A stretch of DNA of 48,835 bases, taken from IMG/VR virus record IMGVR_UViG_2740892051_000004, positions 1 through 48,835 of that record. One strand, 5' to 3'. Each line of letters opens with the position of its first letter. Positions within the stretch are counted from its first letter, which is position 1. The DNA comes from a virus. Taxonomy: Duplodnaviria; Heunggongvirae; Uroviricota; Caudoviricetes. Position numbers and translations under genes: made by a program. This document shows, one piece after another, positions 229 to 48,835 of this stretch. The notes under the pieces are model-generated. The model searched no databases, had not been told where the DNA came from, and saw nothing but the letters and a program-made list of their open reading frames with translations.

Positions 229-245
229 ATTGAGGTGGCAAATAT

Positions 246-1106: not shown

Positions 1107-1128
1107 ATACTTAAAAAGGTGAAAAACT

Positions 1129-2133: not shown

Positions 2134-2147
2134 CTTAGCGACAGAAA

Positions 2148-2176
2148 GACCCGCTCAGAGGCGGGTCTCGTTTACA
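2148..2176 (+). terminator. rho-independent terminator after capsid-like gene
   Basis: GACCCGC-tcagag-GCGGGTC hairpin followed by TCGTTT, 15 nt after stop codon. Confidence 0.5.
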
Positions 2177-2271
2177 GCATCAGGAAAAATGAAGAACTAT
2201 TTTTAAGCAGAGGCTTAAGCATGCCAGCGTTAATTAATCCAGGCAATGATCAGTTTTCGGTTATAAATTTC

Positions 2272-2301
2272 TTGCCTCACCAGGAATGCGCGGGATATAG
2301 T
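2272..2301 (+). promoter_or_regulatory. candidate sigma70 promoter (P4 PLE-like) upstream of immunity region
   Basis: TTGCCT-N18-TATAGT upstream of seqA. Confidence 0.3.
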
Positions 2302-2332
2302 TTAAAGGTTGCCGCAAAATCGGCAGCCGGGC

Positions 2333-2356
2333 GTAGGAACCCGTGTTATCTGAAGG
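2333..2356 (+). promoter_or_regulatory. seqA-like target of CI immunity RNA
   Basis: GTAGGAA...TCTGAAGG; both arms exactly complementary to seqB (2510..2531). Confidence 0.5.
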
Positions 2357-2469
2357 CGATACTACACGCGCTAGGCGTGTTTTTTTGTGTCGCAGCTTTG
2401 ACTCACCTAAAATTTATGGTGTGGTGGCTGATTGTATTTTTTTATTTTTTACGCCACATCATCAGAATT

Positions 2470-2545
2470 ATGGTAGTCCAGGCGGGGCAGCTTTCGGGCT
2501 GGCCGGTATCCTTCAGAGCCGGTATTCCTACCCCCGTCTGGGCTA
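2470..2545 (+). ncRNA. P4-type CI immunity RNA (C4 antisense RNA-like) containing seqB; ends approximate
   Basis: seqB core CCTTCAGA-GCCGGTA-TTCCTAC at 2510..2531 is antiparallel-complementary to seqA and seqC; sits in a leader upstream of early ORFs as in P4. Confidence 0.45.
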
Positions 2546-2557
2546 CCACCCATGAGC

Positions 2558-2599
2558 GTAGGAACTCCGGTGGTAGCGTTACCCGCTATCTGAAGGAGG
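2558..2599 (+). promoter_or_regulatory. seqC-like target overlapping ribosome-binding site of first early ORF
   Basis: GTAGGAA...TCTGAAGG repeat of seqA, ending in AGGAGG 9 nt before ATG at 2608. Confidence 0.5.
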
Positions 2600-2607
2600 T
2601 TGCCATT

Positions 2608-2811
2608 ATGGCTACAGTCCCTGCTTTATCTCACCCTGAATTTACCTTTGTCTTTCTGGCTGTCCGCCGTACAGACCGTGATGCCCGTCCACGCCCTGTG
2701 CGTGTAATCGCAGAATGCGAGCATGCTGCACGCCTTAAACTTGCCACTGAATTTATCCTGAGCTTTGCTGCCCGTATCCCTGTGAAAAGAGCCGGGGAGG
2801 TGGTTGCATGA
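2608..2811 (+). CDS. hypothetical small early protein (satellite)
   Basis: 68-codon 3' part of track ORF 2221..2811 starting at internal ATG with AGGAGG RBS; upstream part of that ORF spans the RNA region. Confidence 0.5.
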   Translation: MATVPALSHPEFTFVFLAVRRTDRDARPRPVRVIAECEHAARLKLATEFILSFAARIPVKRAGEVVA

Positions 2812-3044
2812 AATCCATGAATTTTAAGCAAGGCTGCATATTGAGTGAACAGGGGGAGAGTCGTCTGTTACGGGCGGCACTGGCCAGTGAGTTTCTTGCA
2901 GAGGTCTTGTCCGTGCCCACAGTGAATGGAGCGAGAACTGTTTCAGCGGAAGGCGCTGCGGCTTTAGTGGCCTGTATTGCCGAACAACTGGATGGCGTTG
3001 TTAAGGAAACCAGCACAATTAAGGGAGTGATGCGCGATGAATAA
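2808..3044 (+). CDS. hypothetical protein (satellite early operon)
   Basis: 78 aa ORF, 4-nt overlap with flanking ORFs (translational coupling). Confidence 0.5.
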   Translation: MKSMNFKQGCILSEQGESRLLRAALASEFLAEVLSVPTVNGARTVSAEGAAALVACIAEQLDGVVKETSTIKGVMRDE

Positions 3045-3447
3045 TAATCAAAATTTAAAGGCGCATGCTTTACGAACAGCAGTCTTACGCTACTACATTG
3101 CTGATGCATTCATTTCCTTAATGGTGCGTGTTCATAATGAACCTGTTTATATTGAAGATGGCGAACGAATAGAACTCTCCCACGAAAAAGTGGTGAGTAA
3201 TATTATTTACCATATTGAAATGCCGTGGGTGAATGAGTTTGGGGCTGATGCTGGTTGCATACTGGCCGCAGAGAAACTGGAAAAAATGCTTAAACCAGGC
3301 TTTATGTCAGAAAATATTCGCCTGTCAGTTTTTGGTGTCACAGAGATGCGTGAGGTTTACCGGGATATTATTTTCGGAGCACCTGATGGCGAACTACCCG
3401 AAGGTTTTGAATTTGTGAAGCCGGAAGGTCAGGAGGTGCTGCTGTGA
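3037..3447 (+). CDS. hypothetical protein upstream of primase (position of P4 eps/orf151)
   Basis: 136 aa ORF overlapping primase start by 4 nt. Confidence 0.55.
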   Translation: MNNNQNLKAHALRTAVLRYYIADAFISLMVRVHNEPVYIEDGERIELSHEKVVSNIIYHIEMPWVNEFGADAGCILAAEKLEKMLKPGFMSENIRLSVFGVTEMREVYRDIIFGAPDGELPEGFEFVKPEGQEVLL

Positions 3448-6131
3448 AAACACCGTCTGTATCCACGATTTCCGGAGCTGCAATTGGGCGCTGGCCTTAT
3501 ATCCTGTCAGCATTAGGTATTAAAGTACCGTCCGCAGGACATCATGGGGCTTGCCCTGCCTGTGGTGGAAAAGATCGTTTTCGACTGGACGATAAAGCGG
3601 GGCGAGGGACGTGGTTTTGTAATCAGTGCGGTCATGGCGATGGTCTTGATCTGGTTCGTCTGGTGACAGGAAGAAAGATAAAAGAAGTCGCCGGGATGGT
3701 ATCTGAGGCGCTTGCATTACCAGAAATACAGGAGAAGCCCGCATTGCCAGCCAGGAAAAAGGCCGCAGGAAAAGAAGCGGGCGCGGAGCGATATACCAGA
3801 CTCAGACAGCAGTCCTGCAATGGTGAGCCGGTCTATCTGACAAATAAGAGCTTACACGGGTATTCACTTCCCTTGCTGTCACAGCCTTTGAATCTGGCCG
3901 GAATAACATTTTCCACCGGTTCATTACTGCTGCCTTTGACGGATATTTCCGGGAATATTACTGGTGGCCAGCTTATCAATCCTGACGGGGATAAAAGTCT
4001 GCTGCCCGGTAGCCAGCTGTCTGGCGCATTCATTGCCCTGACCGATATACCCGCTGAAACACCTGAACAGGTGATTATCACTGAGGGTTTTGCCACGGCG
4101 CTTACCGTCAGTCTGCTGACTGAAGGATGGATCGTGGCGGCTGTCGCTGCCACCAATTTACTGAAGGTGACGGAGCAGATCCGAAAACGCTGGCCGGAAA
4201 CCCGGATCATTCTGGCCGGAGATAATGATCTGGCTGACGGCAAAGAAAACACCGGGCGTATTCAGGCAGAGAAAGCCGCCAAAGCGGTGGATGGCTGGGT
4301 AACGCTCCCTCCGGTACGCCATAAGGCTGACTGGGATGATTATCGGCAGGAAGTGGGGAAAGAACGGGCGAGAGATGCCTTTCGTGAAGAAATGACGCTG
4401 CATGGCAAAGGGCAGACCCGTTTACCAGAAGGGTTCCGGCTGACAAAAGAATATTTGTGGTACGACAAGCTGGTTAATAAGTCTGATGGTGATACAGAGA
4501 TACGTAATATCAAAATTTGCAGTCCGTTGCGGGTGACGGCAATCACCAGTGATGCTGATGGAAGTAATTACGGGCGTTTGCTGGAATGGGAAGATACCAA
4601 CGGAAACAGCCGTAAATGGGCAATGCCGATGGAGATGCTGGGCGGTAGCGGGGAAGAACTGCGCCGCGTTCTGCTGGTTAACGGGCTTTCTTACATCAAC
4701 ATTAACGGCATGGCCAGAGCATTCCTGATGGAATATATCTCGCTGTGTAAACCGGACAGAAAAGTAACCTGTGTGAATAAAACTGGCTGGCACGGCGGGG
4801 TTTACGTTCTCCAGGATGAAGTGATAGGGCGCGAAGCCCAGTCAGTCATCTTACAAACATCGAGTGTGCAGGGGCGTGATTTTCGTGTCAGCGGCACATC
4901 AGAGGGCTGGCGTGAAAATATAGGCCGTTATTGCATAAAGAATGCCCGTCTTGCCTTTGCGGTGAGTCTGGCATTTGCTGCCCCCCTTCTGAAACTGGTT
5001 GGTATCGGCGGTGGAGGTTATCACCTCAAAGGGGAATCCACAGACGGTAAAACCACGACGATGAAAGTGGCTGCATCAGTATGTGGTGGAACAGATTTCT
5101 GGCATACGTGGCGGGCGACGGGGAATGCCTTAGAAGGAACGGCGAGCCGCCGCAATGATGCCACGCTGATGCTGGATGAAATCCGGGAGGTTGACGGCAG
5201 GGAGGCGGGAAATATCGCTTATATGCTGGCTAACGGGCAGGGCAAAGCCAGAGCCAGAACAGATGGTTCGGTAAGGGAAACCAACCGCTGGAATCTGTTG
5301 TTTCTGTCTACCGGGGAACTGTCACTGGTAGAGCATGCGGCAAGCGCCGGGGAACGTACGTATGCCGGGGTTGAGGTCAGAATGATCCAGATCCCAAGCG
5401 ATTCGGGCAAGTATGGCGTGTTTGAAGAACTTCATGGCTTCAGTAGCGGGAAAACCCTGGCTGAGCATCTTGAGCAGCACGTAGCGCATTATCATGGTGC
5501 ACCATTCCGCGACTGGCTGTATTGCCTGACCGCTGATCTGCCGGAACTGACCAGTCAGGCGAAAGCCTTATTGAAAGAGTATACCCGAAGGCTGACGCCG
5601 GAAAATGCCGGGAATCAGGTTGGCCGGGCTGTTACCCGTTTTGCTCTGGTTGCGATGGCCGGGGAGCTGGCCACAAAAGCGGGCATCACAGGATGGCCGG
5701 AGGGAGAGGCCTTTCGTGCCGCTCAAAGCTGTCTGGCTGCATGGATGGCTGACCGGGGCCATACAGCTAATCAGGAAGATAAAGCGGCACTTGAACAGGT
5801 TCGGGACTTCATGACGCGTAATCAGTTCAGTCGGTTTGCTGACTGGAATGACGACAGGAACCGGCCTGTTTCAATGATGGGATTCAGAAAAGTCGATAAA
5901 GGAGACAACGTGACAGAGCCGGTTGTGACGTTCTACGTTCTCCCGTCAGGCTGGAAGGAGATCTGTAAGGGATTTGACTCGCGTAAGGTGGCCAGGTTGT
6001 GTGTGGACGCGGGCTGGCTGAAACCCGGTGAAGATGGCCGGACGCAAAACAGCATTCGCCTGCCAGAAATAGGGCTTAAACGTGTGTACCAGTTCAATAC
6101 ACAGGTACTGGGAAGCGCTGAACCTGAGTGA
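3444..6131 (+). CDS. P4 alpha-type primase-helicase
   Basis: 895 aa; N-terminal zinc ribbon CPACGG...CNQCGH, TOPRIM-like 'ITEGF...ILAGDNDL', Walker A 'GESTDGKTT'. Confidence 0.9.
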   Translation: MKTPSVSTISGAAIGRWPYILSALGIKVPSAGHHGACPACGGKDRFRLDDKAGRGTWFCNQCGHGDGLDLVRLVTGRKIKEVAGMVSEALALPEIQEKPALPARKKAAGKEAGAERYTRLRQQSCNGEPVYLTNKSLHGYSLPLLSQPLNLAGITFSTGSLLLPLTDISGNITGGQLINPDGDKSLLPGSQLSGAFIALTDIPAETPEQVIITEGFATALTVSLLTEGWIVAAVAATNLLKVTEQIRKRWPETRIILAGDNDLADGKENTGRIQAEKAAKAVDGWVTLPPVRHKADWDDYRQEVGKERARDAFREEMTLHGKGQTRLPEGFRLTKEYLWYDKLVNKSDGDTEIRNIKICSPLRVTAITSDADGSNYGRLLEWEDTNGNSRKWAMPMEMLGGSGEELRRVLLVNGLSYININGMARAFLMEYISLCKPDRKVTCVNKTGWHGGVYVLQDEVIGREAQSVILQTSSVQGRDFRVSGTSEGWRENIGRYCIKNARLAFAVSLAFAAPLLKLVGIGGGGYHLKGESTDGKTTTMKVAASVCGGTDFWHTWRATGNALEGTASRRNDATLMLDEIREVDGREAGNIAYMLANGQGKARARTDGSVRETNRWNLLFLSTGELSLVEHAASAGERTYAGVEVRMIQIPSDSGKYGVFEELHGFSSGKTLAEHLEQHVAHYHGAPFRDWLYCLTADLPELTSQAKALLKEYTRRLTPENAGNQVGRAVTRFALVAMAGELATKAGITGWPEGEAFRAAQSCLAAWMADRGHTANQEDKAALEQVRDFMTRNQFSRFADWNDDRNRPVSMMGFRKVDKGDNVTEPVVTFYVLPSGWKEICKGFDSRKVARLCVDAGWLKPGEDGRTQNSIRLPEIGLKRVYQFNTQVLGSAEPE

Positions 6132-6156
6132 TTATCGCGTGAGTCTTATTTTTATG

Positions 6157-6347
6157 AGGTAACACTGGTAACAGAGGTAACACCCGTTACTGATGCGGTT
6201 CTTCAGTGTTACCAGTCAAAAATACTGACTGGTAACAGAGGTAACAAAAAATGGTGTGTTACCACGCGTTACCTCTTGATTTTGCTAACTGGTAACAGAT
6301 TAAATCCTTTTAAATCAATAGCGTTACACGTGTTACCAGTGTTACAC
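6157..6347 (+). repeat. iteron array (satellite ori/crr-like)
   Basis: More than 12 copies of GGTAACA / TGTTACC in both orientations immediately after primase stop. Confidence 0.6.
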
Positions 6348-6413
6348 GTTCAGAACAAGAGGTAGGGATCCAAATCCCTTCTTCTGGCGGGCAACAGTAT
6401 AGGGCACAGAACG

Positions 6414-6686
6414 ATGAAGATGATGAGAATGTACTGCCCCACATGTCAGGCAGTAGCACGGATAGGTAAAACAAACAGGAAACACCCACAACTGTACGAT
6501 GTGTACTGCTATTGCTCTAATGTGGAGTGCGGTCACTCGTTTGTGATGAATGTTGCTTTCTCCCATTCCGTTAGTCCAAGCGCGCTGAACGGGCAGGGAA
6601 GGGTTAAAGAGCTGATTGATGCAATTCCACCCGAGGAACGGGAAAAGGCTTTAAAGTTGCTGCTGGCTGCGCAAAAGAATGGGTAA
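6414..6686 (+). CDS. Ogr/Delta-family zinc-finger late transcription activator
   Basis: 90 aa; 'CPTCQ...16 aa...CYCSNVECGH' C4 zinc finger as in P2 Ogr / P4 Delta. Confidence 0.7.
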   Translation: MKMMRMYCPTCQAVARIGKTNRKHPQLYDVYCYCSNVECGHSFVMNVAFSHSVSPSALNGQGRVKELIDAIPPEEREKALKLLLAAQKNG

Positions 6687-7365
6687 AGTATGCGTCGGGA
6701 ATGGCCGATCTGTTCCCGGAACCTGAACACAGGATTTCAGTTTATACGGTCATAAAATTATTATTTTTCAACTGGTTATCTTCTTCATGTTTCACAAACC
6801 TTCATAAAATCACACACCTAAAATTAATTATCCATTTAATATCATAGAGTTGCGTATTCAGGCCATAGATTCGACGGACAGTAAAACTGAAAAAAAATGA
6901 ATTTCTTTTCATTCTTTTCAGTTCCTGTATCGCAGTACATCTCGAGGACTGGCACGGACTGGCGGTATCGTTTGTAAAAAATCCAGGCTGAAAATTTTTA
7001 GTGATATGAAAACCGCAGGCGGGTGCGGTGTAGTGCCGTTTTGGTCTGTCGAGCGTATATTTTCCTTTTTCACGATTGCTGCATATCAAAACGAATGTGC
7101 AGATATCAGGCCGTGTCAAACCGTGAATCGTGGAGCCTAAATGCCCAAACTACGTTTGTAGACCTAGCTAGGGGAAGGTTTCCACATATACTGCTACCTA
7201 TCTTCCAGTCGCTGGTGAGGATCAAGGTAAGCTAACTGGTGAACAAGAAAAGTACTTTCGTATCTTGCGTACTCGTTTTTTTTGATTAGTATGTACAGGT
7301 AGTAACTGGATGGTGAGAATTCGTCATAACTTATCAAATTGCATGATGTTTATAGAGTATGAGTA

Positions 7366-8247
7366 ATGAGTCATAATAAAAAGGAATATGCTAAATTTTT
7401 CCGTCGCCCCATTTTTTCATCCTTAGCAAAAGGTAAGGATATTTCGGATTTATTTGGGAGTTTTGATTCTTACTGCTATGAAACACTGTTTTCAAACAAT
7501 GATAATAATGAACATGAGATTTCACTAAGGGATTTATTTACATCATTATATGATTTTTTGCGTCTGAATTATAGAAATGAATATGTTTATAAGACAGCAC
7601 TTGTCAATAAAATAATATTCGGTAAGCACAGCCCAAAAACAAGTTCGTCGTCCATAGAGTTACCAATTAAAAACTCTATAGTGGATGTTGCGGTGTTTAA
7701 TGGTACGTCTACAGCTTACGAGATTAAGACAGAGTATGATTCACCAAAAAGGTTGATTACTCAAGCCCCTGATTATTTGGATGTTTTTGATAAAGTGTAT
7801 ATAGTTACACATCCAGAGTATGCAAGTAAATATTGTGCTTTAAATCTCCCCAGAGTGGGAGTTATGGTTTTGAATAAAAAAGATCAATTGAGTGTCATTA
7901 AGGAGGCAGATTCAAATATTGATTATATTAAAAGTGACAGCTTGTTTTCAGTTCTTAGAAAGGAAGAGTTCTTAGCTATAATAGAAGATTACACTTCAAC
8001 TAAAATAAATATGCCTAACGGATTGGTTTATGAATATTGTAAAGAGATATTCATGCAGATGCCATTAAACATAGCAAATAAATACTTTATCTCTGCTATG
8101 AAAAAAAGATGTAACGATAAAGTTTTTTTGGATTATATTTATTCTCTTCCAGCATGTTTACGTGTTTTAGGTTATGCAACACCATTATCAAGAAAGCAAA
8201 AAGAATTCATCATGAATTTGATGGATGTAAAAATTAAAATTTGTTGA
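7366..8247 (+). CDS. PD-(D/E)xK nuclease-like protein, first gene of AT-rich cargo cassette (candidate defense)
   Basis: 293 aa; 'SIVDVAVFNGTSTAYEIKTEY' gives D...E-x-K catalytic signature; Lys/Asn/Ile-rich, strongly AT-rich DNA. Confidence 0.7.
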   Translation: MSHNKKEYAKFFRRPIFSSLAKGKDISDLFGSFDSYCYETLFSNNDNNEHEISLRDLFTSLYDFLRLNYRNEYVYKTALVNKIIFGKHSPKTSSSSIELPIKNSIVDVAVFNGTSTAYEIKTEYDSPKRLITQAPDYLDVFDKVYIVTHPEYASKYCALNLPRVGVMVLNKKDQLSVIKEADSNIDYIKSDSLFSVLRKEEFLAIIEDYTSTKINMPNGLVYEYCKEIFMQMPLNIANKYFISAMKKRCNDKVFLDYIYSLPACLRVLGYATPLSRKQKEFIMNLMDVKIKIC

Positions 8248-8268
8248 TATCCTCAGGAGTTGTAAGTT

Positions 8269-9219
8269 ATGTATAGCCCATATTTGTATGCGAGAAGTAC
8301 AGAGTTATTATGCCTTAGGGACCTCGTTGCGAAGGGAGTTAGCCTAAATGGTCTGCTACCAATTTTAGAACCAATTAACGTCAATACGAGAAATTTATTA
8401 ACATGTTTAAATGTTTGGAATTCTGACATAATTGTTATCCTTAATCCTTATCAGGAAGATTTTTCTTCACACAATAACGTCTTAACTTTAAATCAAAATT
8501 TATCAAGTGTATTAACAAATAAAAATAATATCATCTCTGGATATCTTATTCAGCCCAATACAACGATTAATGATATTAATAATTGGTTGAATGCTAACTT
8601 AAATAGACGAGTTGCACTTCTATATGATAATCCATCATTATCCAACTCTGATATTCAGTTGTTGGCGACAAATCAATTGATTAGTTATCATGTTGTTTTA
8701 AATAATAAAATGCTTCCTAATCAGTGCGCTCTTCTTCCTTTGTCGAAGTTAATTATTATTAGCGATAACTTTAGAAAGTTAGCAAAAAATGCTGATTATA
8801 ATGGGCCGGAACTTTTCACGCACGCACATCAATTCGTGGGACAAAATTACTTAGGATTTGGCGATTATACAATTACTGGCCAGGTACTAGATCTTGGAGG
8901 TGGTCAACCTTCTGCTGTTGCCGCACATTTGGTGTTCAAGAATTTACAAGCGAATACAGTTTGGATTCGTCATTTTGTATCAAGCAACACGCAACGAGGA
9001 AGTTCAAATGTTACTGCAAAATTTTTAGATGTTTCAGATCAAATTACAAATCTTGTTCCCCAACATCCAACCCAGTTTGGCAGCAACATTGGTCTTAACT
9101 ATTATTATTACAATAGTCAACCAACTGTAAGGCATTTCCCTGGGTTGCCAAAAAACAAACAGTATCAAATTACTCACCATATTTGTTTCATGCTGGATTT
9201 AATAGCAGGTCGTATTTAA
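8269..9219 (+). CDS. hypothetical protein, second gene of cargo cassette (partner of nuclease-like protein)
   Basis: 316 aa, 21 nt after upstream gene, same AT-rich composition; N-terminus 'MYSPYLYARSTELLCLRDL'; 3' end overlaps integrase stop by 21 bp. Confidence 0.7.
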   Translation: MYSPYLYARSTELLCLRDLVAKGVSLNGLLPILEPINVNTRNLLTCLNVWNSDIIVILNPYQEDFSSHNNVLTLNQNLSSVLTNKNNIISGYLIQPNTTINDINNWLNANLNRRVALLYDNPSLSNSDIQLLATNQLISYHVVLNNKMLPNQCALLPLSKLIIISDNFRKLAKNADYNGPELFTHAHQFVGQNYLGFGDYTITGQVLDLGGGQPSAVAAHLVFKNLQANTVWIRHFVSSNTQRGSSNVTAKFLDVSDQITNLVPQHPTQFGSNIGLNYYYYNSQPTVRHFPGLPKNKQYQITHHICFMLDLIAGRI

Positions 9220-10374
9220 TAAGCTAGCGTACCATTCCATCATTACTTGTCGATCTTTAATATATTGCGCATGATTGTAAGTACCTCGAATAGAGTTCTT
9301 ATCAACATGCGCAAGCTGCATTTCAATCCAGGCACTTTCAAACCCATGCTCATGCAAGATGGTGCTCATGGTATGCCTGAAACCGTGACCCGTTAACCGA
9401 CCGTGATAACCCAGTAGTTTTATCACTTTGTTGATGCTGGCTTCGCTCATTGGTTTACTGACGTCATTCCGGCCAGGGAAAACGAGGCTGTAATTCCCTG
9501 TTATTTCTTGCAGCTTTTTCAGGATATTGATCGCCTGAGTTGATAACGGAACCAGATGGGGGCGGCGTTTCTTCATCCGTTCTTTGGGGATCTCCCATAA
9601 GGCATTATCTAAATCAAACTCAGCCCATTCCGCTGCACGTAGTTCAATTGTTCGCACGCCTGTTAGCATCAACAGCTGCGTGGCGTATTTGGTAACTAAA
9701 CTGCCCTGATAGTTATCCAGAGCATTAACGAACTCGGGCAACTCGCTTTCAGTCAGGAACGGGAAGTGTTGGGTTTTAGGTTTGTTGAGTGCGATAGCTA
9801 AATCGGGTGCAAAATTATACTTTGCTCTACCAGTGGCAACAGCATAACGAAGCACTTCACCACAGCGGCGGCGGATCTTACTGGTTTGCTCTAGCGCACC
9901 TCTTTTCTCTATTTTTTGCAGGACGGTTAGCAGTTCTAATGGTTCAATCTGCTCAATTGGGCGCTGGCCGATAAAAGGAAAAATATCCTTTTCCATACAA
10001 TTGAGAACCTCTTTTGCATAACCCTCTGACCAGGTGGCTTTTTTCGATGAGTGCCATTCTCTGGCCACAGACTCAAAGCTGTTCTCATGCGCGAACTGCA
10101 AAGCAATCTTATCTGCTTTTCTGGCTTCACTTGGGTTTATCCCGTTGGCTAACATCGAACGCGCTTCATCACGTTTGGTACGTGCCTGTGCCAACGACAC
10201 ATCGCCATATACGCCAAAGGAAATCATCTTAGGCTTACCTGCAAAGCGATAGCGAAAACGCCAGCCTTTACTGCCCGCTGTGTCGATCAGGAGTGATAGC
10301 CCCATACCATCGTTAAGCGTATAGGGTTTGTCCTTCGGTTTTGCTCTTTTTATTTGGATGTCAGATAGCAGCAT
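9199..10374 (-). CDS. int: tyrosine integrase, P4 family with arm-type N-terminal domain
   Basis: Start set at internal Met 'MLLSDIQIKRAKPK'; C-terminal catalytic 'HGFRHT...LAHVD...RGTYNHAQY'. Confidence 0.9.
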   Translation of the reverse strand: MLLSDIQIKRAKPKDKPYTLNDGMGLSLLIDTAGSKGWRFRYRFAGKPKMISFGVYGDVSLAQARTKRDEARSMLANGINPSEARKADKIALQFAHENSFESVAREWHSSKKATWSEGYAKEVLNCMEKDIFPFIGQRPIEQIEPLELLTVLQKIEKRGALEQTSKIRRRCGEVLRYAVATGRAKYNFAPDLAIALNKPKTQHFPFLTESELPEFVNALDNYQGSLVTKYATQLLMLTGVRTIELRAAEWAEFDLDNALWEIPKERMKKRRPHLVPLSTQAINILKKLQEITGNYSLVFPGRNDVSKPMSEASINKVIKLLGYHGRLTGHGFRHTMSTILHEHGFESAWIEMQLAHVDKNSIRGTYNHAQYIKDRQVMMEWYASLLNTTCY

Positions 10375-10622
10375 GTGTATAGAAAAAAGATCGAACTCAG
10401 TTATACACAATGTTATACGCAAAGATGTATAGATTCCATTAGAAATAATGGTACTTTGCTGGACGAGTATAAGGAGATGATATCAGTTAAAACAGTGAGT
10501 TATGGAATTAATTGAACTTAGTGAGAAGTGTTCATGGTGTCCCCTGCAGACATCTACTTGGCGCGGCAGGGGATTGATTGGAATGGTGTTTTTTAGATGT
10601 GAAAAATATTTTACCCGCTATT

Positions 10623-26053: not shown

Positions 26054-26128
26054 GGGTCAGTCGTATAAAGGTCATTACGGAAGGCTGTTAACCTTCTTAT
26101 CGTGGTTCGAGTCCACGCTGTCCCGCCA
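26054..26128 (+). tRNA. tRNA, anticodon GTT (Asn), hand-folded
   Basis: Acceptor stem with one mismatch, D-loop GG, anticodon loop CTGTTAA, T-arm CGTGG-TTCGAGT-CCACG, 3' CCA encoded. Confidence 0.55.
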
Positions 26129-26133
26129 AACAT

Positions 26134-26209
26134 GCTGGTTTAGCTCCAATGGTAGAGCAGTCGCCTTGTAAGCGAATGGGTAGCGGTTCAAGTCCGTTAA
26201 CCAGCACCA
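26134..26209 (+). tRNA. tRNA-Thr (anticodon TGT), hand-folded
   Basis: Acceptor GCTGGTT/AACCAGC, D-arm GCTC-CAATGGT-AGAGC, anticodon loop CTTGTAA, T-loop TTCAAGT, CCA encoded. Confidence 0.65.
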
Positions 26210-26451
26210 TAACTGAGCCGTAGCCACTGGCTATCCTGAATTCATCAGTGATAGTTACGCTGCGGCATTCTACGCATGACCTTCGTGAAAGCGGGTGGCA
26301 AGAGGCTGCGCTAACAACCTCATGCCGTTTTGCCCGTGCATATCGGTCACGAACAAATCTGATTACTAAACACAGTAGCCTGGATTTGTTCTATCAGTAA
26401 TCGACCTTATTCCTAATTAAATAGAGCAAATCCCCTTATTGGGGGTAAGAC

Positions 26452-41027: not shown

Positions 41028-43763
41028 ATGGCTAATTACCGTGATTTGTTAGAGCAGGCTGGCGCACGTTACGGTGTGCCAGAAGGGTTGATGACTGCAC
41101 TGGGTGCCAAGGAGTCTTCTTACAACCCTGCAGCAGTAAGCTCCTCCGGGGCTGTAGGATTGACTCAGGTTATGCCTGGGACATGGCGTGATATGGGTTA
41201 TACCGATGAGCAAATGCAAAACCCCGAATATCAGGCTGACGCTGGCGCGCGCTATCTGGCAAAGATGTACCAGCAGTTTGGTAACTGGCGTGATGCTCTT
41301 CAGGCTTATCACGACGGCCCCGGCAACGTTATGAAGGCAAAACGTGGTGAATATACGCCAGGACCTGAAGGCCGCGGTTACGTTGATGATCGCTTTGCTC
41401 AATGGGCGGGTGACCCGGTGACAGACTCAACAGTCGAACAGCGCGCCACCTCTGCAAAGGTACATCCTCAGCAAGACCCTAACAACCCGTTTGCACAACT
41501 GGAAGCACAGTCATCCGAACAAGTATCGGCATCAGGTGTGCAGTCAGACCCAAATAATCCATTTGCTCAGATTGAGCAGCAGGCAGCCAGTCAGCAGCCA
41601 CCTCAACCCGTAAGTTCTGTCGCACCGAAACCTGTTCAGCAACAAACAGTTAATCAGGCCAATAATGCACCAACACGGGAAGAACCATCATTGATGCAAC
41701 AAGCTGGCGATTGGCTCACTGGTGGTCAAAGTGCAGGGCAAATTGCAGAACAGGCTGGTCGTGGTCTGGTAAACATACCATTTGACGTATTACAGGGTGG
41801 CGCAAGTCTGATTAATGCAATCAGCCAGGGGCTCGGTGGCCCCAAGGTTTTGGATGATGTTTATCGCCCTGTCGATCGACCGACAGACCCTTATGCGCAA
41901 GCTGGAGAGTCAATAGGCGGTTATCTTGTTCCTGGAGCAGGTGTAGCTGGAAACATGGTCATTGGTTCTCTCGCTGACGCGGCGAATCAACGGGGTGATT
42001 TTGCCGAAAATGCCGCTATTAATGCCGGACTTAACATTGCTACGCATGGCCTGATAAATGGCGTTACCCGTGGTGTTCGTGGTGCATCAAATATAATTAG
42101 TGGCAATAAAACATCTGCACAGAGAGCGACCACTGCGCCAACAGAAACATCACCATTCTCCGGTGATGCCGCAGAGGCAACAAATCCTGCGGTTCATGCC
42201 GCAGAGGCAAGAGCAGCACAAGGTGTACCAATGACTCCTGCGACGAGGAACCCAGAGGAAGTCGTTCGCACAGTAGCAGCACAAAAAAGGCCAAATCTCG
42301 CTTCATCGCTTGATGAACTAGATATCAATCCTCAGGCTGAAGTTCTGGAGTCTGCTGAAAGGCTTAATGTTGATTCATTACTCCCTTCACACTTTTCCGG
42401 GAACGAGCAATACAAGGCAGTTGAGCAAGCAATCAAGTCCCGTGCGGGTTCTGCTCTACAGGTGCAGGAAAATGAAGCAATCAGGCAGCTAGCACAGGGT
42501 GCGGGGGAGATAATTGATCGCGTTTCCGGTGCAAAAGATGCTCTTGGTATGAGCGACAAGTTTATTGATACGGTCAATGGAAGAATGTCTGCGCTGATGA
42601 AACGAAGCGACCAGCTTTATCGCAATGTTGAAAAGGCGATGCCTGCAGGTGCAAAAATTGATGCGCCATCAACAAGGTCAATGCTCAAACAGGTGGCAGA
42701 AGATCTTGGCGGGATGAAAAACCTTGACCCTATTGAAAAGAGAGTCTTTCGGGCAGTTAATCCAGGCAAGAACGGCGCATTAACTTATGCAAATCTCAAT
42801 AAGCAACGACGACTTGTTGGTGATGCACTTCATAAGAATTCTGGACCATATAAAGATGCTGATCGCGCTGCTTTATCGAGGCTTTACGGTTCGCTCGCCG
42901 ATGATCAAAAGGCGGCGCTGTCAGAGACAAATGCATTACGTGATTTTGAAGTTGCTCAGAGGCTTGTTCAGATGCGAAAAAGCATGGAAGAGCAAATGAT
43001 TAATCTAACTGGCAGAACGCTGAACGGTGATGTTTCTCGCAAAGCAACTACAGCACTACAGGCAATGTCGAAAGGCGATGCCAAAGGATTTCGTGAATTG
43101 ATGCAAAACACGCCGTCCAGGAAGCTAAGAACCGAGCTACTGGGAACAGGTCTTCGTGATATGCTTTCGAACGGAAAACGTGGCGCTGATTTTAATCCTG
43201 CAGGGTTTGCTGACTGGTATCAAAACATGTTAGCAAACGGGCAGATGCGCAATCTTGCCCGACATTTACCAAAAGAGACTATGTCAGGTCTGAACGATGT
43301 ATATAAGGTCGCAAAGGCTATCAAAGATGCAAAATCTTACGAGATAACTACAGGAAGACTAAACGAGTTCGTCAAACGGTTTAATCGCGTCACTGCGGCA
43401 AATGAATTTGTTGCTAACCATGCCCAACGCATTGGCACTGCGGTTGGTTCAACTGTGTCAGGACCGTTCAGTGCAGTAGGTGCTGTTGCTGGGTCAGAAA
43501 TTGGGGCAAAAGTCGCCAGCAAAATTAGGGCGATGGGCGGCGCTGCATCAATGGAATCTGCAGAAAAGCTAATTAGCTCACCAGAATTCCAGAAAGCAGC
43601 AAGGTTGGCAGTAAGACAAGCACCAGAAAGCATCGTTGATACAACTGTAAGACGCTCTTCTGCTTGGCGCTCGTTTTACAACTCACTTCCAGAATCAGAT
43701 AAGAAAACCATATCAAGGCTAGGCATCATGTACTGGATGAACAGTGATGATAACCAGAAGTAA
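41028..43763 (+). CDS. ejection/injection protein with N-terminal lytic transglycosylase (SLT) domain
   Basis: '[28 protein letters not shown]...YLAKMY' SLT catalytic Glu motif; 911 aa. Confidence 0.75.
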
Positions 43764-43780: not shown

Positions 43781-43861
43781 TTAGTTGCTGTCTTTTTTAT
43801 ATAAATCTCTGAGCGTATCAAAGAAAATTTTCTTTACCATATCAGATTGTTGTTCTGCCAT
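43781..43861 (-). pseudogene. mnt-like 3' remnant (26 codons)
   Basis: Minus strand encodes 'MAEQQSDMVKKIFFDTLRDLYKKDSN', homologous to C-terminus of intact Mnt at 45008..45259; no N-terminal half. Confidence 0.4.
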
Positions 43862-43951
43862 ACGCGATGCTATTGGTAGCGATGAATTCAATCGCTTGTC
43901 GAGAGCTGGTATTGTCGCCTCGTTAAGCGGTATGAATGAATATGAATAGCT

Positions 43952-44437
43952 TTATCTAATGTTGCTGCTACTGTTGCATGTGACGGTATTTCCAAATCCT
44001 GAATTGCAGTTTGTATAGGTGTCAACACGCGTCGGGTAAGGTTGAGTTATAACAGGCTGGCGCGCTTTTTGCTCGATCGCTTGCATTGTGTTTACAGCCT
44101 GATAATTCAATAAAGCCTGCTGGAATGCTTGGCTTTGCGCTATTTGTTGGGCTTGTTCTTGGCTTTGTAATTGAACATAAAGATTCTGAAGCTCAAGTCT
44201 TGCCTGCGCGTCACTTATCTTGCCATCATCGACACCTTGCCCGAGCATCTTCGCAGCAAGGACATATAACTTAGGTGTTGGTGCTGATGCCATGCGTGAG
44301 TCGTTCTTCACGCTAGCATCAAGGCAATTAGCCATATCGCTAAGCTTTGGATAGCGTTGTTCGCAACTTGCCTGATAGTCGCTAACCTTTGCACACCCTG
44401 CCAGCAGAAGCGGGATAATTAACAGTGATTTTTTCAT
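43952..44437 (-). CDS. lipoprotein (moron), function unknown
   Basis: Start 'MKKSLLIIPLLLAGC' signal peptide with lipobox, GGAGAG RBS; Gln-rich C-terminal half. Confidence 0.6.
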   Translation of the reverse strand: MKKSLLIIPLLLAGCAKVSDYQASCEQRYPKLSDMANCLDASVKNDSRMASAPTPKLYVLAAKMLGQGVDDGKISDAQARLELQNLYVQLQSQEQAQQIAQSQAFQQALLNYQAVNTMQAIEQKARQPVITQPYPTRVDTYTNCNSGFGNTVTCNSSSNIR

Positions 44438-44571
44438 ATGATTAACTCTCCTTATCTTTGCCATCATGGCACTGTTGGGTGTAAATGAGTTATTAACTCA
44501 ATCGACAATATCTTCACGAAAATACTTTTTATTATTAAGATCTTTCTGATTCTAACAAAACGGAAAGTAAT

Positions 44572-44991
44572 ATGAAGAGGATTATCGGCGTCGTTGCTGG
44601 CGCTATATTGTTATCTGGGTGCGCAACTATTGTTGGTGATGAAACGCAGCTTGTGCAAGTGAACAGCAATCCTTCTGGCGCGAGCTTTAAGGTAAAAGAT
44701 GAATCTGGTGTGATTGTTGCGCAAGGTAAGACTCCACAAGGTGTAACACTCGCCAAGTCAGATGGTAGCTATTTTGGCAAAAAGAGCTACCAGATCACTA
44801 TGGAGAAGGATGGGTACGAACCAGTTACCCTGCCAATCAAAGCCAATGCTAATGGTTGGTATATTGGTGGGAACCTTGTGTTTGGTGGGTTAATTGGTTG
44901 GCTTGCTGTAGATCCATTTAATGGTGGGATGTATACCTTGAAGCCAAAAGAGGCAAACGCATCTCTTATACCATCAACAAAGCAAGACTAA
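44572..44991 (+). CDS. lipoprotein (moron), function unknown
   Basis: 'MKRIIGVVAGAILLSGC' lipobox; Gly-rich 'GWYIGGNLVFGGLIGWL' segment. Confidence 0.6.
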   Translation: MKRIIGVVAGAILLSGCATIVGDETQLVQVNSNPSGASFKVKDESGVIVAQGKTPQGVTLAKSDGSYFGKKSYQITMEKDGYEPVTLPIKANANGWYIGGNLVFGGLIGWLAVDPFNGGMYTLKPKEANASLIPSTKQD

Positions 44992-44997
44992 TAAATA

Positions 44998-45025
44998 GGA
45001 CCCACCTTCAGGTGGGTTTTTTGTA
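44998..45025. terminator. bidirectional rho-independent terminator
   Basis: CCCACC-ttca-GGTGGG then TTTTTT; overlaps mnt stop. Confidence 0.55.
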
Positions 45026-45259
45026 CAAATCCTTCAGCGTATCAAACACCATCTTCTTAACAAGCTCTGATTGCTCATCAGCGATGCGTTCCGCATCGTC
45101 TCGATAGCCTGAAATTTTGGATGGCCTTGATACAGCATCAGTCACTATCTGAACTAATTCTGAATTAAGAGAGCGGCCATTGGATTTGGCTCGCTGTTTT
45201 AGTTTTTCCTTTAATTCGTAAGGTAGCCGCAGATTAAATTGCGGGTCATCTCTTCCCAT
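45008..45259 (-). CDS. mnt: Mnt repressor (Arc/MetJ ribbon-helix-helix family)
   Basis: 83 aa; 'DDPQFNLRLPYELKEKLKQRAKSNGRSLNSELVQIV...DAERIADEQSELVKKMVFDTLKDLYKK' closely matches P22 Mnt. Confidence 0.85.
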   Translation of the reverse strand: MGRDDPQFNLRLPYELKEKLKQRAKSNGRSLNSELVQIVTDAVSRPSKISGYRDDAERIADEQSELVKKMVFDTLKDLYKKPT

Positions 45260-45323
45260 TCTTGATGCCTCGCTCTTGTGAGTGGATCGGCATCTTATTA
45301 TCTGCTGGTTGCATCCTCAATAA

Positions 45324-45336
45324 GACCACGGTGGTC
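45324..45336. promoter_or_regulatory. candidate Mnt operator
   Basis: Perfect palindrome GACCACGGTGGTC upstream of mnt, resembling the P22 Omnt core. Confidence 0.45.
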
Positions 45337-45394
45337 GTATTTTTTGGTTAATAATGCATCACTGCGGCCATTCCTTGTATCTGGAGCAAATTAA

Positions 45395-47569
45395 ATGACA
45401 GACATTACAGCCAATGTTGTGGTGAGCATGCCTTCGCAACTCTTCACTATGGCCCGCTCTTTTAAAGCCGTAGCTAATGGCAAAATTTATATCGGTAAAA
45501 TTGACACTGACCCAGTAAATCCTGAAAACCAGATTCAGGTTTATGTGGAGAATGAAGACGGTTCTCACGTTCCTGTTTCGCAACCAATAATCATTAACGC
45601 TGCTGGATATCCGGTATATAACGGACAGATTGCCAAATTCGTAACCGTGCAAGGCCATTCTATGGCTGTTTATGATGCGTATGGTACACAGCAGTTCTAT
45701 TTTCCGAATGTGCTGAAGTATGACCCGGATCAGTTTAAATTACTTATTGGCGGTACAGATGGTAGTAAATATATCGGTTTCGGCGCTTCAACGGTTTACG
45801 ATGCAATCAGGAAAACACCTCAATACTATGGAGCTAAAGCAGATGGATTGACATCAGATTCTGATGCCATTAATGCCGCAGCATTAGCTGCTTTTAATAA
45901 TGGTGGTGGGGAAATATTTTACCCTCCAGGTGTTTATTTAATAGATTCTCCTATCATTCTTTATACAGGCGTTCATCATAAAGGCTCTGGAAAGAGAGCA
46001 ACATTTCTGTATGTTAAAAAAGGTAGTAATACAGATGTATTTAAAACACATGGCTTTGGCGTTGTGGAAAATCTGTCTGATGCGCCATATGGATTTAGCA
46101 TAAAAGATATGACCATTGATGGTAATTATCTTGACTTGCAAAGAGATACAAACTCATGGAGAACTTGCGACACTGTTAACAATGACTATGGAACTGCCAT
46201 TAAAATATTCGGCAGCATGTACCATATTGACGTTGAGATTAATAATGTTGCAGAACATGCTCTCTATTCAGAGGGGTATGGATCATTTCATGATAATCAG
46301 GAACACGCCTCTGAAGTGAGGATAACGGGGAGAATTTCAGGGAGAGAGGGGGTTGTGTTCAGGGGGCCAGGTGATATTAACCTGGATTATATTGTTTTTG
46401 GCCTGTGTGGACTTCCTCCTTACAGCGCAAGATTAACAGCAACAAGCCAACAAAGCCTTCTTTATCCAGGAGAACCATGTCATGGAATTGTTCTTGATAA
46501 TCAGTCTCCTTATACAGGACATGTCGATATAAATTACATCCATGTATATGCCGCGTATTATGGCTATGGATTTAAGACGCTGGGTGTTAACCGATTTAAT
46601 GCGAGGCATGTGTGTGTTGATAATAGTTTAGGTGGTTACTGGTTTACCAACGGGGCACATGGTGTTGTTGCCATCGCAGAAGCCAGGGCGTGCGGAAGAA
46701 TGCCAGATAACTACACTGGCGATTCAATTTCTCCTCTCCGCGACATGCTTCTGGATAACGGTACAATCTGGACACTTAACATCAATATAAAAGCACAAAG
46801 ATATTCACCTTCAATTGATGATGATGGGTATCAGATAGCTATATCAGGCAACAACAATGTAGTTACAATAAACCAAATCGGTCAGTTGCAGAGTGACAAT
46901 GCCCCTATTAAAGCCTCGCTTCTTTCTGTTACTGGTGACAATAACAATGTTACTTTTACATCCAAGAGGATAAAAGGAAATTTATGTTACTTATCCGGCG
47001 GTGGTAATAATATAAGAGGTTCGTGTGATAATTTGTTTTCGGGTTCTGCTCTTATTCGCGATGCAGTAAATTCAACAACAATTTGTTTTGCGAACAGCGT
47101 AGATATAACTGCGAAGGGGCTTTCTTCTGATTGCACTGGATTTAACAGCATTGGCACATGTGCATCAGAGAATATAAGATTAATCACTTCAGGCGCAAAT
47201 GGTTATAATAGGTTTTTAGGTGATAGAATGGCAGCCCTTAACAGGACGTGTACGTGGACGATTATGGCAACAGTTGGAAACTCAATAAATGGGAAATCAA
47301 CTGACGATTATATTGAGTGGAATATGCCAAACCCAACAGGTAGCGAATCTAACGAGGTTGATATTGAGCATAATTTTCTGTATGCCCCAACACCAAACCA
47401 GATTGCTGTGTTGGGGTTTAGACAACCTGCTGGTTCTGCAGAAGGTGCAACTTTAAGTCCAATAGAAATTATCGGAACTCCAAGTGAGTCTTCTTTCAGA
47501 ATTAGATACCATTGGTCAGGCCCTTTATCTTCTGGCTCTGCTCCAATTGTAATGTTCAGGATTAGATAG
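45395..47569 (+). CDS. tailspike protein (P22 gp9-like head-binding domain + divergent receptor-binding domain)
   Basis: N-terminus '[18 protein letters not shown]...[37 protein letters not shown]...LKYDPDQF' matches P22 tailspike; remainder AT-rich and unrelated. Confidence 0.85.
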
Positions 47570-47677: not shown

Positions 47678-48835
47678 TCACTCCACCTTTTCATCAAGCC
47701 AGTCCGCCCACCATTGCATCATTTCTCTGCGCTTATCGAGATACTGAGCATGGTTGTAAATTCCACGTACAGATCCGCCGTTGGCATGTGCCAGTTGCAC
47801 TTCAATGGCGTCGGCAGGCCATTCGTGCTCGTTCATAATCGTGCTGAATTCATGCCTGAATCCGTGACCGCTTTCCAGCCCCTCATAGCCGATTTGTTTG
47901 ATCACAAGCAATACCGCGTTCTCGCAGATTGGTTTCTTCTTATCGTTGCGCCCGGCAAAAACAAACTCTGAGACTGGTTTGGTGATTGAGCTTAGCGTAG
48001 TAAGAAGTTCAACCACCTGGTCTGACATAGGAACCACATGAATTTTGCGTCCCTTCATCACACTGGCGTCGATGGTGATAATCCTGTTTTCAAAATCGAC
48101 GTTCTTCCATTGCATGGAGCGAAGCTCTTTCGTTCTTAGGGCTGTGTAGCGTAAAACTTTGGTCGCAATGAGCGATACGATACTTCCTGAAAATGTTGCC
48201 AGTGCTTTGTTGAATGCCGGGATCTGGTCTGCAGGAAGAAACGGGAAGTTCTTCTTGCGGTATCCCTTCATGGCGTCAGCAAGGTCAGGTGCCGGGTTAT
48301 ATTTAGCCCTACCAGTAACAATAGCGTAACGAAAAACCTCGCCGCATCTTCTGCGGGCTTTGTTGGCTCGCTCCATTGCACCGCGATCTTCAAATCTGCG
48401 GATTACTTCCAGCAGTTGCATCGGCTCAATATCCTGAATCTCAAGACCGCCGATGATGGGTAAAATGTCGTCATCAAACATTTTGGCAAGTTCAGTTGCA
48501 TAGCCTACTGACCAGACTTGCTTCTTGTGCTCGTACCATTCCTTGTAAATCGCACTAAATGAATTGTTGTTAGACGAAGCCTTTTTCGCCTTTACCGGAT
48601 CGATGCCAACCGAGATGTCTTTCCTCGCAGTCCATGCCTTATCCCTTGCTTCCTGCAAAGTCATAAGCGGATATTTTCCGACGGTCAGGATTTTCTCCTT
48701 ACCGTCAATCTTGTAGCGAAGCTGCCATACCTTTTTCCCTGACACAGGGACATAAAGGTACAGGCCATTACCATCGAGAAGGCGGTATGGTTTTTCTTTT
48801 GGCTTTGCTGCTTCAATCTGCTTAACGGTGAGCAT
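47678..48835 (-). CDS. int: tyrosine integrase, P4 family (second copy); start codon at window edge
   Basis: 385 aa; paralogous to 9199..10374 ('RRRCGEVFRYAIVTGRAKYNPAPDLA', 'HGFRHE', 'RGIYNHAQY'). Confidence 0.9.
   Translation of the reverse strand: MLTVKQIEAAKPKEKPYRLLDGNGLYLYVPVSGKKVWQLRYKIDGKEKILTVGKYPLMTLQEARDKAWTARKDISVGIDPVKAKKASSNNNSFSAIYKEWYEHKKQVWSVGYATELAKMFDDDILPIIGGLEIQDIEPMQLLEVIRRFEDRGAMERANKARRRCGEVFRYAIVTGRAKYNPAPDLADAMKGYRKKNFPFLPADQIPAFNKALATFSGSIVSLIATKVLRYTALRTKELRSMQWKNVDFENRIITIDASVMKGRKIHVVPMSDQVVELLTTLSSITKPVSEFVFAGRNDKKKPICENAVLLVIKQIGYEGLESGHGFRHEFSTIMNEHEWPADAIEVQLAHANGGSVRGIYNHAQYLDKRREMMQWWADWLDEKVE

Follow-up and report, generated by a model that had tools for sequence, protein, structure and literature searches.

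Why would a prophage that encodes no antirepressor keep the repressor of that antirepressor, and keep it together with its operator directly in front of its tailspike gene? In phage P22, the Mnt protein of the prophage represses ant on superinfecting genomes, and the bipartite immunity of this phage is reportedly known from the work of Botstein and Susskind. The stretch of DNA analyzed here (henceforth the window; 48.8 kb) contains an Escherichia coli P22-like (Lederbergvirus) prophage, which spans approximately 11.4 to 47.6 kb and is flanked by a satellite-like element on the left and an intS-type integrase gene on the right. Close to the right end of this prophage lies an orphan mnt, i.e., one that stands without arc and ant, in a layout beside the tailspike gene that is already known and widespread. 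We favor, at about an even chance, the explanation that the locus is a deletion derivative of an immI region of the class marked by the operator half-site AAGACCAC, which survives as a functional and probably self-regulating cassette of mnt, its operator (Omnt) and its promoter (Pmnt), with the tailspike being transcribed via the late operon and read-through, and with immunity in trans as the most plausible value of the cassette.

The right end of the late operon comprises, in order, a gene 16 homologue (41028-43763), two lipoprotein genes (43952-44467 on the minus strand and 44572-44991 on the plus strand), a terminator, mnt (45008-45259, minus strand, 83 aa), an intergenic region of 135 nt (45260-45394), which equals exactly the interval flagged by the first-pass annotation, and the tailspike gene (45395-47569, plus strand, 724 aa). 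The terminator scan places a bidirectional intrinsic terminator at 44997-45020 on both strands, common to the convergent plus-strand lipoprotein gene and minus-strand mnt; its folding energies are -14.2 kcal/mol (z=-3.1) for the plus strand and -12.0 kcal/mol (z=-2.7) for the minus strand, and in phage epsilon34 a terminator is annotated at the equivalent spot. The tailspike joins a P22-type head-binding domain to a pectate-lyase-like receptor-binding part: its ORF matches PF09008 (P22 head-binding domain; E=3.9e-67) and also PF12708, and it shares 75% identity with residues 1-116 of P22 gp9. Its leader (45360-45394, plus strand), with the Shine-Dalgarno motif GGAG at 45383-45386, is homologous to that of P22 gene 9 (L004 4668-4704) and was found in all orphans aligned.

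A few other features of this end of the prophage deserve mention. Between the gene 16 homologue and the first lipoprotein gene there is a relic of the 3' end of a second mnt (43793-43870, minus strand), which is reduced to the C-terminal helix (65% identity to P22 Mnt residues 56-81 by tblastn) and makes a 72-nt direct repeat with 45017-45088. A 38-aa ORF with a GTG start, which occupies 45278-45394 and spans the operator, was dismissed as spurious on account of having no family match and of being broken in frame by 11-12-nt indels in relatives. At the position of P22 rha, the window codes for a T5orf172/MUG113-type protein.

That the minus-strand ORF beside the tailspike encodes a Mnt repressor, as the first-pass annotation had it, is borne out along its full length by domain, sequence and structure comparisons. 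Its N-terminal ribbon-helix-helix (residues 3-50) matches Arc (PF03869, E=1.1e-21) and its C-terminal tetramerization helix (residues 53-80) matches Repressor_Mnt (PF11423, E=1.4e-18); the protein is 75% identical to P22 Mnt across all 83 residues; and, among solved Mnt structures, it recovers 1mnt (E=7e-34) and the tetramerization domain 1qey (E=3e-12, with 28/31 residues identical). The two proteins differ in the strand that reads the DNA: the window Mnt has the N-terminal strand GRDDPQFNLRLP, with Gln at position 6 versus His in P22, its recognition strand being RDDPQFNLRL as against RDDPHFNFRM. Correspondingly, the operator half-site is AAGACCAC in the window and AGGTCCAC in P22. The gene itself is a mosaic. 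Its 3' third shows ~94% nucleotide identity to the P22-type mnt of ~100 E. coli genomes that carry a complete P22-type immI, and the divergence of its DNA-binding part from P22-type mnt is saturated.

Comparison with the P22 immI region (mnt-Pmnt/Pant-Oarc-Omnt-arc-sar-ant) reveals a common plan. In both, mnt has the same orientation and occupies the same site, flanked by the gene 16 homologue and tailspike gene 9; the 21-bp dyad operators are homologous and equally far from the mnt start; Pmnt takes a homologous position; and the tailspike leader and ribosome-binding site are the same. However, the window is missing arc, sar, ant and the ant terminator (~1.3 kb; L004 ~3350-4668), the hexamers of its Pant have decayed, and its two lipoprotein genes stand where P22 has sieA and orf59a. 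The homology to P22 ends within a few bases of the right side of the operator. It begins again in the gene 9 leader with its ribosome-binding site, 35 bp ahead of the tailspike ATG, and a short variable filler forms the deletion junction between operator and leader (45341-45359, from the P22 comparison). The position of the Arc operator is filled by unrelated sequence, and the tailspike start comes 136 nt from the mnt start. The first-pass observation that no arc or ant follows mnt also holds: tblastn with P22 Arc and Ant against the window matched only mnt itself, and scans of 19 less obvious prophage ORFs against PHROGs and Pfam detected no antirepressor, Bro-N, KilA or Rha domain. Nor did an ant turn up elsewhere, be it in the window, in these scanned ORFs or in the tblastn search of the prophage that was run with P22 SieA alongside Arc and Ant. 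Accordingly, neither an ant downstream of the operator nor an arc with its operator within Pant, both of which belong to a functional P22-type immI, is present.

These junctions would be most simply accounted for by one ancient deletion that removed arc, sar and ant, from just right of the operator to ~35 bp upstream of the tailspike start, and spared mnt, the leftward Pmnt and a single 21-bp operator. As the same change in the Pant -35 hexamer and the same left junction are common to all orphans, these loci appear to share a single origin.

The architecture has been encountered before. Direct adjacency of mnt and tailspike is seen in the Salmonella phages ST160, SE1, SPN9CC, L, ST64T and ST104 and in the Escherichia phages Gally and vB_EcoP-720R6, and the mnt-only arrangement with homologous junctions recurs in L001, L002 and more than 60 IMG/VR loci. 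Villafane et al. 2008 named this variable region the 'ant moron' and listed ST64T, ST104 and Para1 as having only mnt and one gene of unknown function there (PMC2629481); the window, with its leftward mnt between the gene 16 homologue and the tailspike and no arc or ant, belongs to this mnt-only class. Whether mnt without ant has gained a new function in the L-group phages or is a remnant is a question already in print in the phage L genome paper (PMC8022706). Phages L, ST64T, ST104, SE1, ST160 and SPN9CC share with the window the leftward mnt, 136 nt from the mnt ATG to the tailspike ATG, the operator class and the TCGGCA hexamer at the Pant -35 position. In contrast to the window, the L type has a Mnt that is only 69% identical, with a divergent C-terminal half; an operator that forms a perfect palindrome, AAGACCAC-C-GTGGTCTT, where the right arm of the window is GTGGTCGT; a stable hairpin upstream of the tailspike ribosome-binding site, which the window has lost; and orf62 on the left in place of the two lipoprotein genes. 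Across the orphans, the tailspike ATG is 136-149 nt from the mnt ATG, or ~425 nt where the 5' end of the tailspike gene has been exchanged; one orphan locus has an IS1 in its tailspike gene. To this known picture the present analysis adds that the orphans constitute a single Mnt/operator class, that the same class is live elsewhere, and that Pant has decayed against a conserved Pmnt, operator and mnt.

The operator is the best-defined element of the intergenic region. An inverted repeat, AATAAGACCAC-G-GTGGTCGTATT, occupies 45319-45341 with 10/11 arm positions complementary, a quality reached in 0.2-0.3% of shuffles of the 135-nt region. Within it lies the 21-bp Omnt homologue ATAAGACCAC-G-GTGGTCGTAT (45320-45340), with arms at 45322-45329 and 45331-45338, a dyad center at 45330 and the half-sites AAGACCAC-G-GTGGTC; it aligns, as a positional homologue, with the annotated P22 mnt operator ATAGGTCCAC-G-GTGGACCTGT. 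Its center is 65 bp and its right edge 54 bp upstream of the tailspike ATG (45395), in good agreement with the operator-like palindrome that had been noted about 60 bp before the tailspike start. No second operator-like site exists in the 48.8-kb window, the 3-mismatch match at 41747 being within chance expectation. By sequence comparison, both the operator and the promoter-like hexamers are conserved at P22-homologous positions, and binding of Mnt to this operator is putative. A set of 38 distinct intergenic sequences from orphans has 0.36 extra alleles per column in the operator arms and 1.56 in the junction (45341-45372); the arms are nearly invariant while all four bases occur at the central position. 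Even the divergent orphans L155 (58% identity) and L171 (72%) retain CAATAAGACCACNGTGGTCTTAA exactly, with their surroundings diverged.

Could the palindrome instead act at the RNA level, as a hairpin or intrinsic terminator (GACCA-CGG-TGGTC followed by a T run) that limits read-through into the tailspike? The terminator scan does flag 45324-45336 followed by GTATTTTTTG on the plus strand. However, the hairpin is weak (-6.8 kcal/mol, z=-0.8), with 36/200 shuffles folding as well; the T run is absent from the L-type, L155 and L171 orphans; the arms show no compensatory changes, with only the central base varying freely; and the P22 operator to which the site is homologous has been defined biochemically. 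Conserved arms about a center that is free to vary fit a dyad bound by a protein that leaves the center uncontacted, rather than an RNA hairpin. We therefore rejected the terminator, which we hold to be extremely improbable. On the strength of the P22 geometry, Mnt tetramers most likely bind the predicted operator ATAAGACCACGGTGGTCGTAT and thereby set their own level.

The promoters on the two strands have had opposite fates. The candidate Pmnt (45292-45320, minus strand), which we infer from the sequence, consists of a -35 TTGAGG (45320-45315) and a -10 TAAGAT (45297-45292) separated by a 17-nt spacer; it is the best sigma-70 match of the region (8/12) and takes the place of the annotated P22 Pmnt (TTGAGA-17-TATCAT). 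The 21-bp operator abuts its -35 hexamer, such that the operator center would fall at ~-45 relative to the predicted start site. In the alignment, the pattern TTGnnn-17-TAnnAT is retained in all divergent orphans. On the plus strand, the position of Pant (45287-45315) now reads TCGGCA at -35 and TGCATC at -10 with 17-nt spacing, as against TTGACA-17-TATATT in P22. In every orphan aligned the -35 is TCGGCA, or ATGGCA in L155, and the final T of the -10, otherwise invariant, is absent in all. A scan of the region for rightward promoters returned no match of at least 9/12, the best being a 7/12 match that is not conserved (TCCTCA-18-TATTTT, 45314-45343). The strong rightward Pant overlapped by Omnt that typifies immI is thus missing from the window. 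With Pant decayed, the operator no longer gates a promoter reading into the tailspike. The decay of Pant, while repressor, Pmnt and operator were kept, also indicates that unconstrained elements in this region do degrade.

How, then, is the tailspike transcribed? Going by synteny, its transcript most likely comes from the late operon, which the tailspike gene closes, under antitermination, and some read-through from the moron genes upstream would add to it. A P22-type late promoter could not be aligned to the window, owing to the different Q-type antiterminator of the latter. Experiments, namely RNA-seq and a mnt deletion, come from a single relative, phage Gally (OV696608, a prophage of E. 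coli LF82), which is 94% identical in nucleotides over the mnt-to-tailspike region, has a 98.8% identical Mnt (annotated as 'Mnt repressor' beside the tailspike) and has the same two lipoprotein genes upstream. It differs from the window in an intergenic region longer by 11 nt (a CTGCGGC repeat), in an operator with A rather than G at the center and the right arm GTGGTCTC, and in the receptor-binding part of its tailspike. According to Misson et al. 2023 (PMC9928086), Gally mnt does not rise above background in overnight LB cultures (log2 ~3.6-3.9, raw counts of 2-4 reads) and climbs via cell-culture medium to log2 ~9 in macrophages, a 40-fold rise. In macrophages, tailspike RNA goes up 21-fold, with the late gene GALLYPH_12 upstream of it remaining flat (log2 ~3.6-4.1), which implies that some tailspike transcription is independent of the late promoter; this partial independence counts somewhat against our preferred explanation. 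Both lipoprotein genes are strongly induced, and the ratio between the tailspike and the upstream moron gene GALLYPH_14 at 6 h is ~26-fold in medium, as against ~3-fold in macrophages. A lysogen with mnt::kan is viable, and its survival in macrophages resembles that of the wild type; thus, Mnt is not needed for the maintenance of lysogeny, as expected where there is no ant.

These observations bear directly on the first-pass suggestion that Mnt was co-opted to regulate the tailspike, either by repressing the weak 7/12 promoter, whose match spans the operator, or by standing, 65 bp before the tailspike ATG, as a roadblock in the way of RNA polymerase arriving from the late operon or an upstream moron gene. 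All rightward transcription that enters the tailspike does have to cross the operator. Furthermore, the Gally tailspike is transcribed independently of the upstream late genes and does not simply follow GALLYPH_14, and in P22 the region affects late transcription reaching gene 9, with the possible participation of Mnt and Arc (Villafane et al. 2008, PMC2629481). Against this, the candidate promoter is poor and is missing from orphans of the Gally type and the L type and from L171; among the orphans, no part of the region varies more than the stretch from the operator to the ribosome-binding site of the tailspike; and the ancestral Pant has decayed in all of them. Moreover, Gally mnt and tailspike RNAs move together rather than inversely, unlike a simple repressor-target pair, and cytoplasmic tailspike would presumably come at no obvious cost to a lysogen. 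Hence, co-option found no positive support in the promoter comparisons or in the joint induction, and we regard it as unlikely, if still the foremost of the alternatives.

The other first-pass reading, that the locus is a remnant, is right as history, in that the locus derives from immI by deletion, and wrong as a description of its present status. A functionless leftover of a degrading immI that persists only by its linkage to the tailspike would have no arc or ant to regulate, as is the case here, and is one of the two options offered by the phage L genome paper (PMC8022706). The absence of a phenotype of the Gally mnt deletion in the one assay performed and the background expression in LB (PMC9928086) are also compatible with it. 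Moreover, decay occurs sporadically among the orphans: codon 53 of mnt is a stop in L064 and L065, and the operator deviates by a single base in six loci and has a degenerate right arm in four distinct loci (within L221-L226). Such decay in a few orphans sits uneasily with our preferred explanation too. Nevertheless, mnt evolves at a dN/dS of 0.07-0.10 between orphan lineages (window type versus SE1/ST160 type), with substantial synonymous divergence (dS ~0.5-0.6); in the comparisons with L, L155 and L171, synonymous sites are saturated at a pN of 0.2-0.3. The ORF is intact in ~78/80 sampled loci; the operator arms and key Pmnt positions are kept where the flanks have diverged beyond recognition; and Pant, unlike the cassette, decayed over the same period. 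A locus under such purifying selection makes a functionless leftover distinctly improbable, and in our estimation even less probable than the co-option for tailspike control.

What the preserved cassette might be directed against is suggested by the classes into which Mnt proteins and their operators fall. Our comparative sample consists of 80 IMG/VR loci encoding Mnt relatives along with reference phages, each classified by Mnt strand, operator and the presence of arc/ant. All orphans sampled belong to one class, with the Mnt N-terminus RDDPQFNLR (GRDDPQFNLRLP) and the operator AAGACCAC-N-GTGGTC. Reciprocally, a Mnt with GRDDPQFNLRLP and Gln at position 6 is an orphan in every case among the 80 loci, and all such orphans bear the operator CAATAAGACCAC-N-GTGGTC, making the pairing of strand and operator perfect across them. 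By comparison, the P22 class (RDDPHFNFR; ARDDPHFNFRMP, His at position 6) is always linked to arc and ant in the sampled loci and, where an adjacent operator is found, this is AGGTCCAC-N-GTGGACC in every case. An Emek-type class (ARNDPQFNVRMP) has the operator ATAGTAGTAC-G-GTACTAT, and a class with ARDDPQFRIRLP has two GTCACAC-N-GTGTGAC sites. A single-residue code for operator choice (His6/Gln6) was considered and discarded, because the Emek-type Mnt likewise has Gln6 and yet a different operator; judging from these alignments, it is the whole recognition strand that co-varies with the half-site, and residue 6 alone does not appear to set specificity.

The class of the orphans is also found in a live form. 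IMG/VR searches with the operator pattern and with divergent Mnt recovered ten contigs with complete AAGACCAC-class modules (the loci listed being L087, L211-L219 and L225). These have the operator AATAAGACCACGGTGGTCTCA as in the window, a Mnt with the similar strand ARDDPQFNLRM and the same divergent layout relative to mnt; in contrast to that of the window, their Pant is still strong, with TTGACA, a spacer of 17/18 nt and a good -10, and arc and an antirepressor lie beyond it. The C-terminal domains of their Mnt proteins are unrelated to that of the window, and these proteins are longer (98-120 aa). The modules belong to other Enterobacterales phages (IMGVR_UViG_3300028186_000124 is one such contig) and reside in genomes related to Yersinia myophages rather than in P22-like podophages, with one of the contigs being related to temperate Yersinia myophages; their host range is read from IMG/VR contigs only. 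An integrative element likewise has the same operator ahead of a gene for a 147-aa ribbon-helix-helix protein (SREDPQFKLRMP). The bare 14-base operator pattern matched IMG/VR mostly by chance, with 90/120 loci being irrelevant, and revealed L087, L113, L116, L155 and L171. Among GTDB species representatives, an exact-pattern scan for AAGACCAC-class Pant/Oarc gave no matches, and a protein-based scan with Mnt gave pattern matches of which none was confirmed. The complete immI modules that we inspected in complete E. coli genomes are P22-type or Emek-type, with none of the AAGACCAC class, and the operator of the P22-type immI circulating alongside in E. coli is a different one.

Taken together, the purifying selection on the cassette and the use of the same class to drive real arc-ant modules elsewhere make secondary immunity acting in trans its most likely present role. 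Under this proposal, Mnt made by the prophage would block the expression of the antirepressor from incoming or co-resident phages of the same class and would thereby spare the main repressor of the prophage. Three observations pull the other way: complete AAGACCAC-class modules are rare in the collections searched, so that targets may be scarce in E. coli; the P22-type immI of E. coli has another operator; and the background expression of Gally mnt in LB is odd for a constitutive immunity repressor. The question is thus narrowed to whether a prophage devoid of an antirepressor gains from keeping the repressor of one, with trans-immunity as a concrete and testable answer. If it is true, orphan repressors would be a simple prophage defense against induction by the antirepressor of a rival, which would partly explain the rapid turnover of the region in P22-like phages; if it is false, the locus is a well-known mosaic scar.

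A further role for the protein would dispense with a target site of its own. The tetramerization helix of the window Mnt is near-identical to that of P22-type Mnt (28/31 residues), while its DNA-binding domain reads a different half-site, and the orphan could accordingly work as a dominant-negative subunit instead of repressing a target of its own. In a cell shared with an incoming or co-resident phage that has a P22-type immI, mixed tetramers of one AAGACCAC-reading and one AGGTCCAC-reading dimer would bind neither operator well; a rival P22-type antirepressor might then be derepressed and the outcome of prophage induction or superinfection altered, amounting to prophage cross-talk by subunit poisoning of a secondary-immunity repressor. 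We consider this very unlikely, and trans-immunity remains the role that we prefer for the cassette.

Finally, the window is an ordinary instance of this locus, since many E. coli genomes carry the same sequence: of 5,426 complete E. coli genomes, 112 match at least 80% of the length of mnt plus the intergenic region, and in one of these the identity is 100%.

Comparison with P22-type relatives at the level of sequence shows that the orphan mnt (45008-45259, minus strand) is itself a mosaic: against P22-type mnt, synonymous divergence is saturated over codons 1-45 (pS about 0.9) and falls to a dS of 0.2-0.4 over codons 46-83; further, in about 100 E. coli genomes with a complete P22-type immI, the secondary-immunity region, only the 3' ~100 nt of mnt are held in common, at 94-95% identity. 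Together, these features suggest that the DNA-binding and tetramerisation domains meet at a recombination joint.

A second copy of the mnt 3' end persists as a relic at 43793-43870 (minus strand), directly after the gene 16 homologue. It is enclosed by a 36-aa ORF, shows 65% identity to residues 56-81 of P22 Mnt, and, together with 45017-45088 at the 3' end of the genuine mnt, makes up a direct repeat of 72 nt that is 72% identical. This repeat brackets two divergently transcribed genes, both with a lipoprotein-like signal peptide, at 43952-44467 (minus strand; phrog_6067) and 44572-44991 (plus strand; phrog_6823, with a weak PEGA-domain match). The flanking of both genes by the repeat suggests that they came in through recombination inside mnt. 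In P22 the position that they hold is occupied by sieA. The 139-aa gene of the pair is also found in phage epsilon34, as gene 15. In Gally, the near-identical prophage of E. coli LF82, the homologues of the two genes (GALLYPH_13 and GALLYPH_14) show expression in the lysogen and strong induction in macrophages.

On the other side of mnt, phages L and P22 and three further loci (L019, L155 and L171) possess a stable hairpin directly upstream of the ribosome-binding site of the tailspike gene (3213-3232 in L; 4660-4680 in P22). In phage L it takes the form CCGTAGC-CAC-GCTGCGG (-17.4 kcal/mol, z=-3.0), and from lineage to lineage its arms differ by compensatory changes. Unlike these, the window has no such hairpin in the corresponding region (45360-45372), apparently because 11 nt were deleted between CTGCGGC repeats, which Gally still has.

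One set of relatives (L029, L041, L051-L055, L060, L064 and L065) marks the start of the tailspike gene as a recombination hot spot. In these the usual tailspike frame runs for four codons (ATGACAGATATT) and then gives way to ~290 bp of AT-rich DNA and a different tailspike gene, the N-terminus of which is ~70% identical; an upstream in-frame ATG could add 28 residues. In L037, which is otherwise of the Gally type, an IS1 lies within the tailspike gene, about 100 bp in, and hence this prophage is probably defective.

Operators of the orphan mnt class also occur in a different setting. In L113 and L116 (L116 8218-8670) a AAGACCAC-N-GTGGTC site lies directly upstream of a gene whose 147-aa product (SREDPQFKLRMP...) is a ribbon-helix-helix protein; the surrounding integrative element also carries an AAA-ATPase gene and a P4-type integrase. 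The repressor/operator pair is thus reused beyond phage immI regions. Additional Mnt/operator specificity classes exist (loci L231 and L233; L229 and L230; L208): in the class typified by phage Emek (L231, L233) the Mnt strand ARNDPQFNVRMP is paired with the operator ATAGTAGTAC-G-GTACTAT, and in a further one the strand ARDDPQFRIRLP goes with two GTCACAC-N-GTGTGAC sites. In L208 and L070-L074 an additional ribbon-helix-helix gene separates mnt from arc.

Elsewhere in the prophage (26054-26209 and 26215-26290), tRNA-Asn and tRNA-Thr genes separate the Q-type antiterminator gene from the lysis genes. Directly behind these tRNA genes recur CCGTAGCCAC and GCTGCGGCATTC, the two halves of the motif that lies upstream of the P22 and L tailspike genes; they may be a module-boundary sequence. 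The gene 16 homologue (41028-43763) is unusually long at 911 aa. On inspection by eye, the N-terminal part resembles a lytic transglycosylase domain, and a relative (E. coli E189) carries that annotation.

Other integrative DNA adjoins the prophage on both sides (1-10422 and 47678-48835). The left element has its P4-type integrase gene at 9199-10422 (minus strand), and also genes annotated in relatives as DUF927 primase-like, helicase, P2-family capsid and sce7725. The right flank holds an intS-type integrase gene, whose start codon coincides with the end of the window; in strain EC32 the intS-type integrase adjoins tRNA-Arg (argW).
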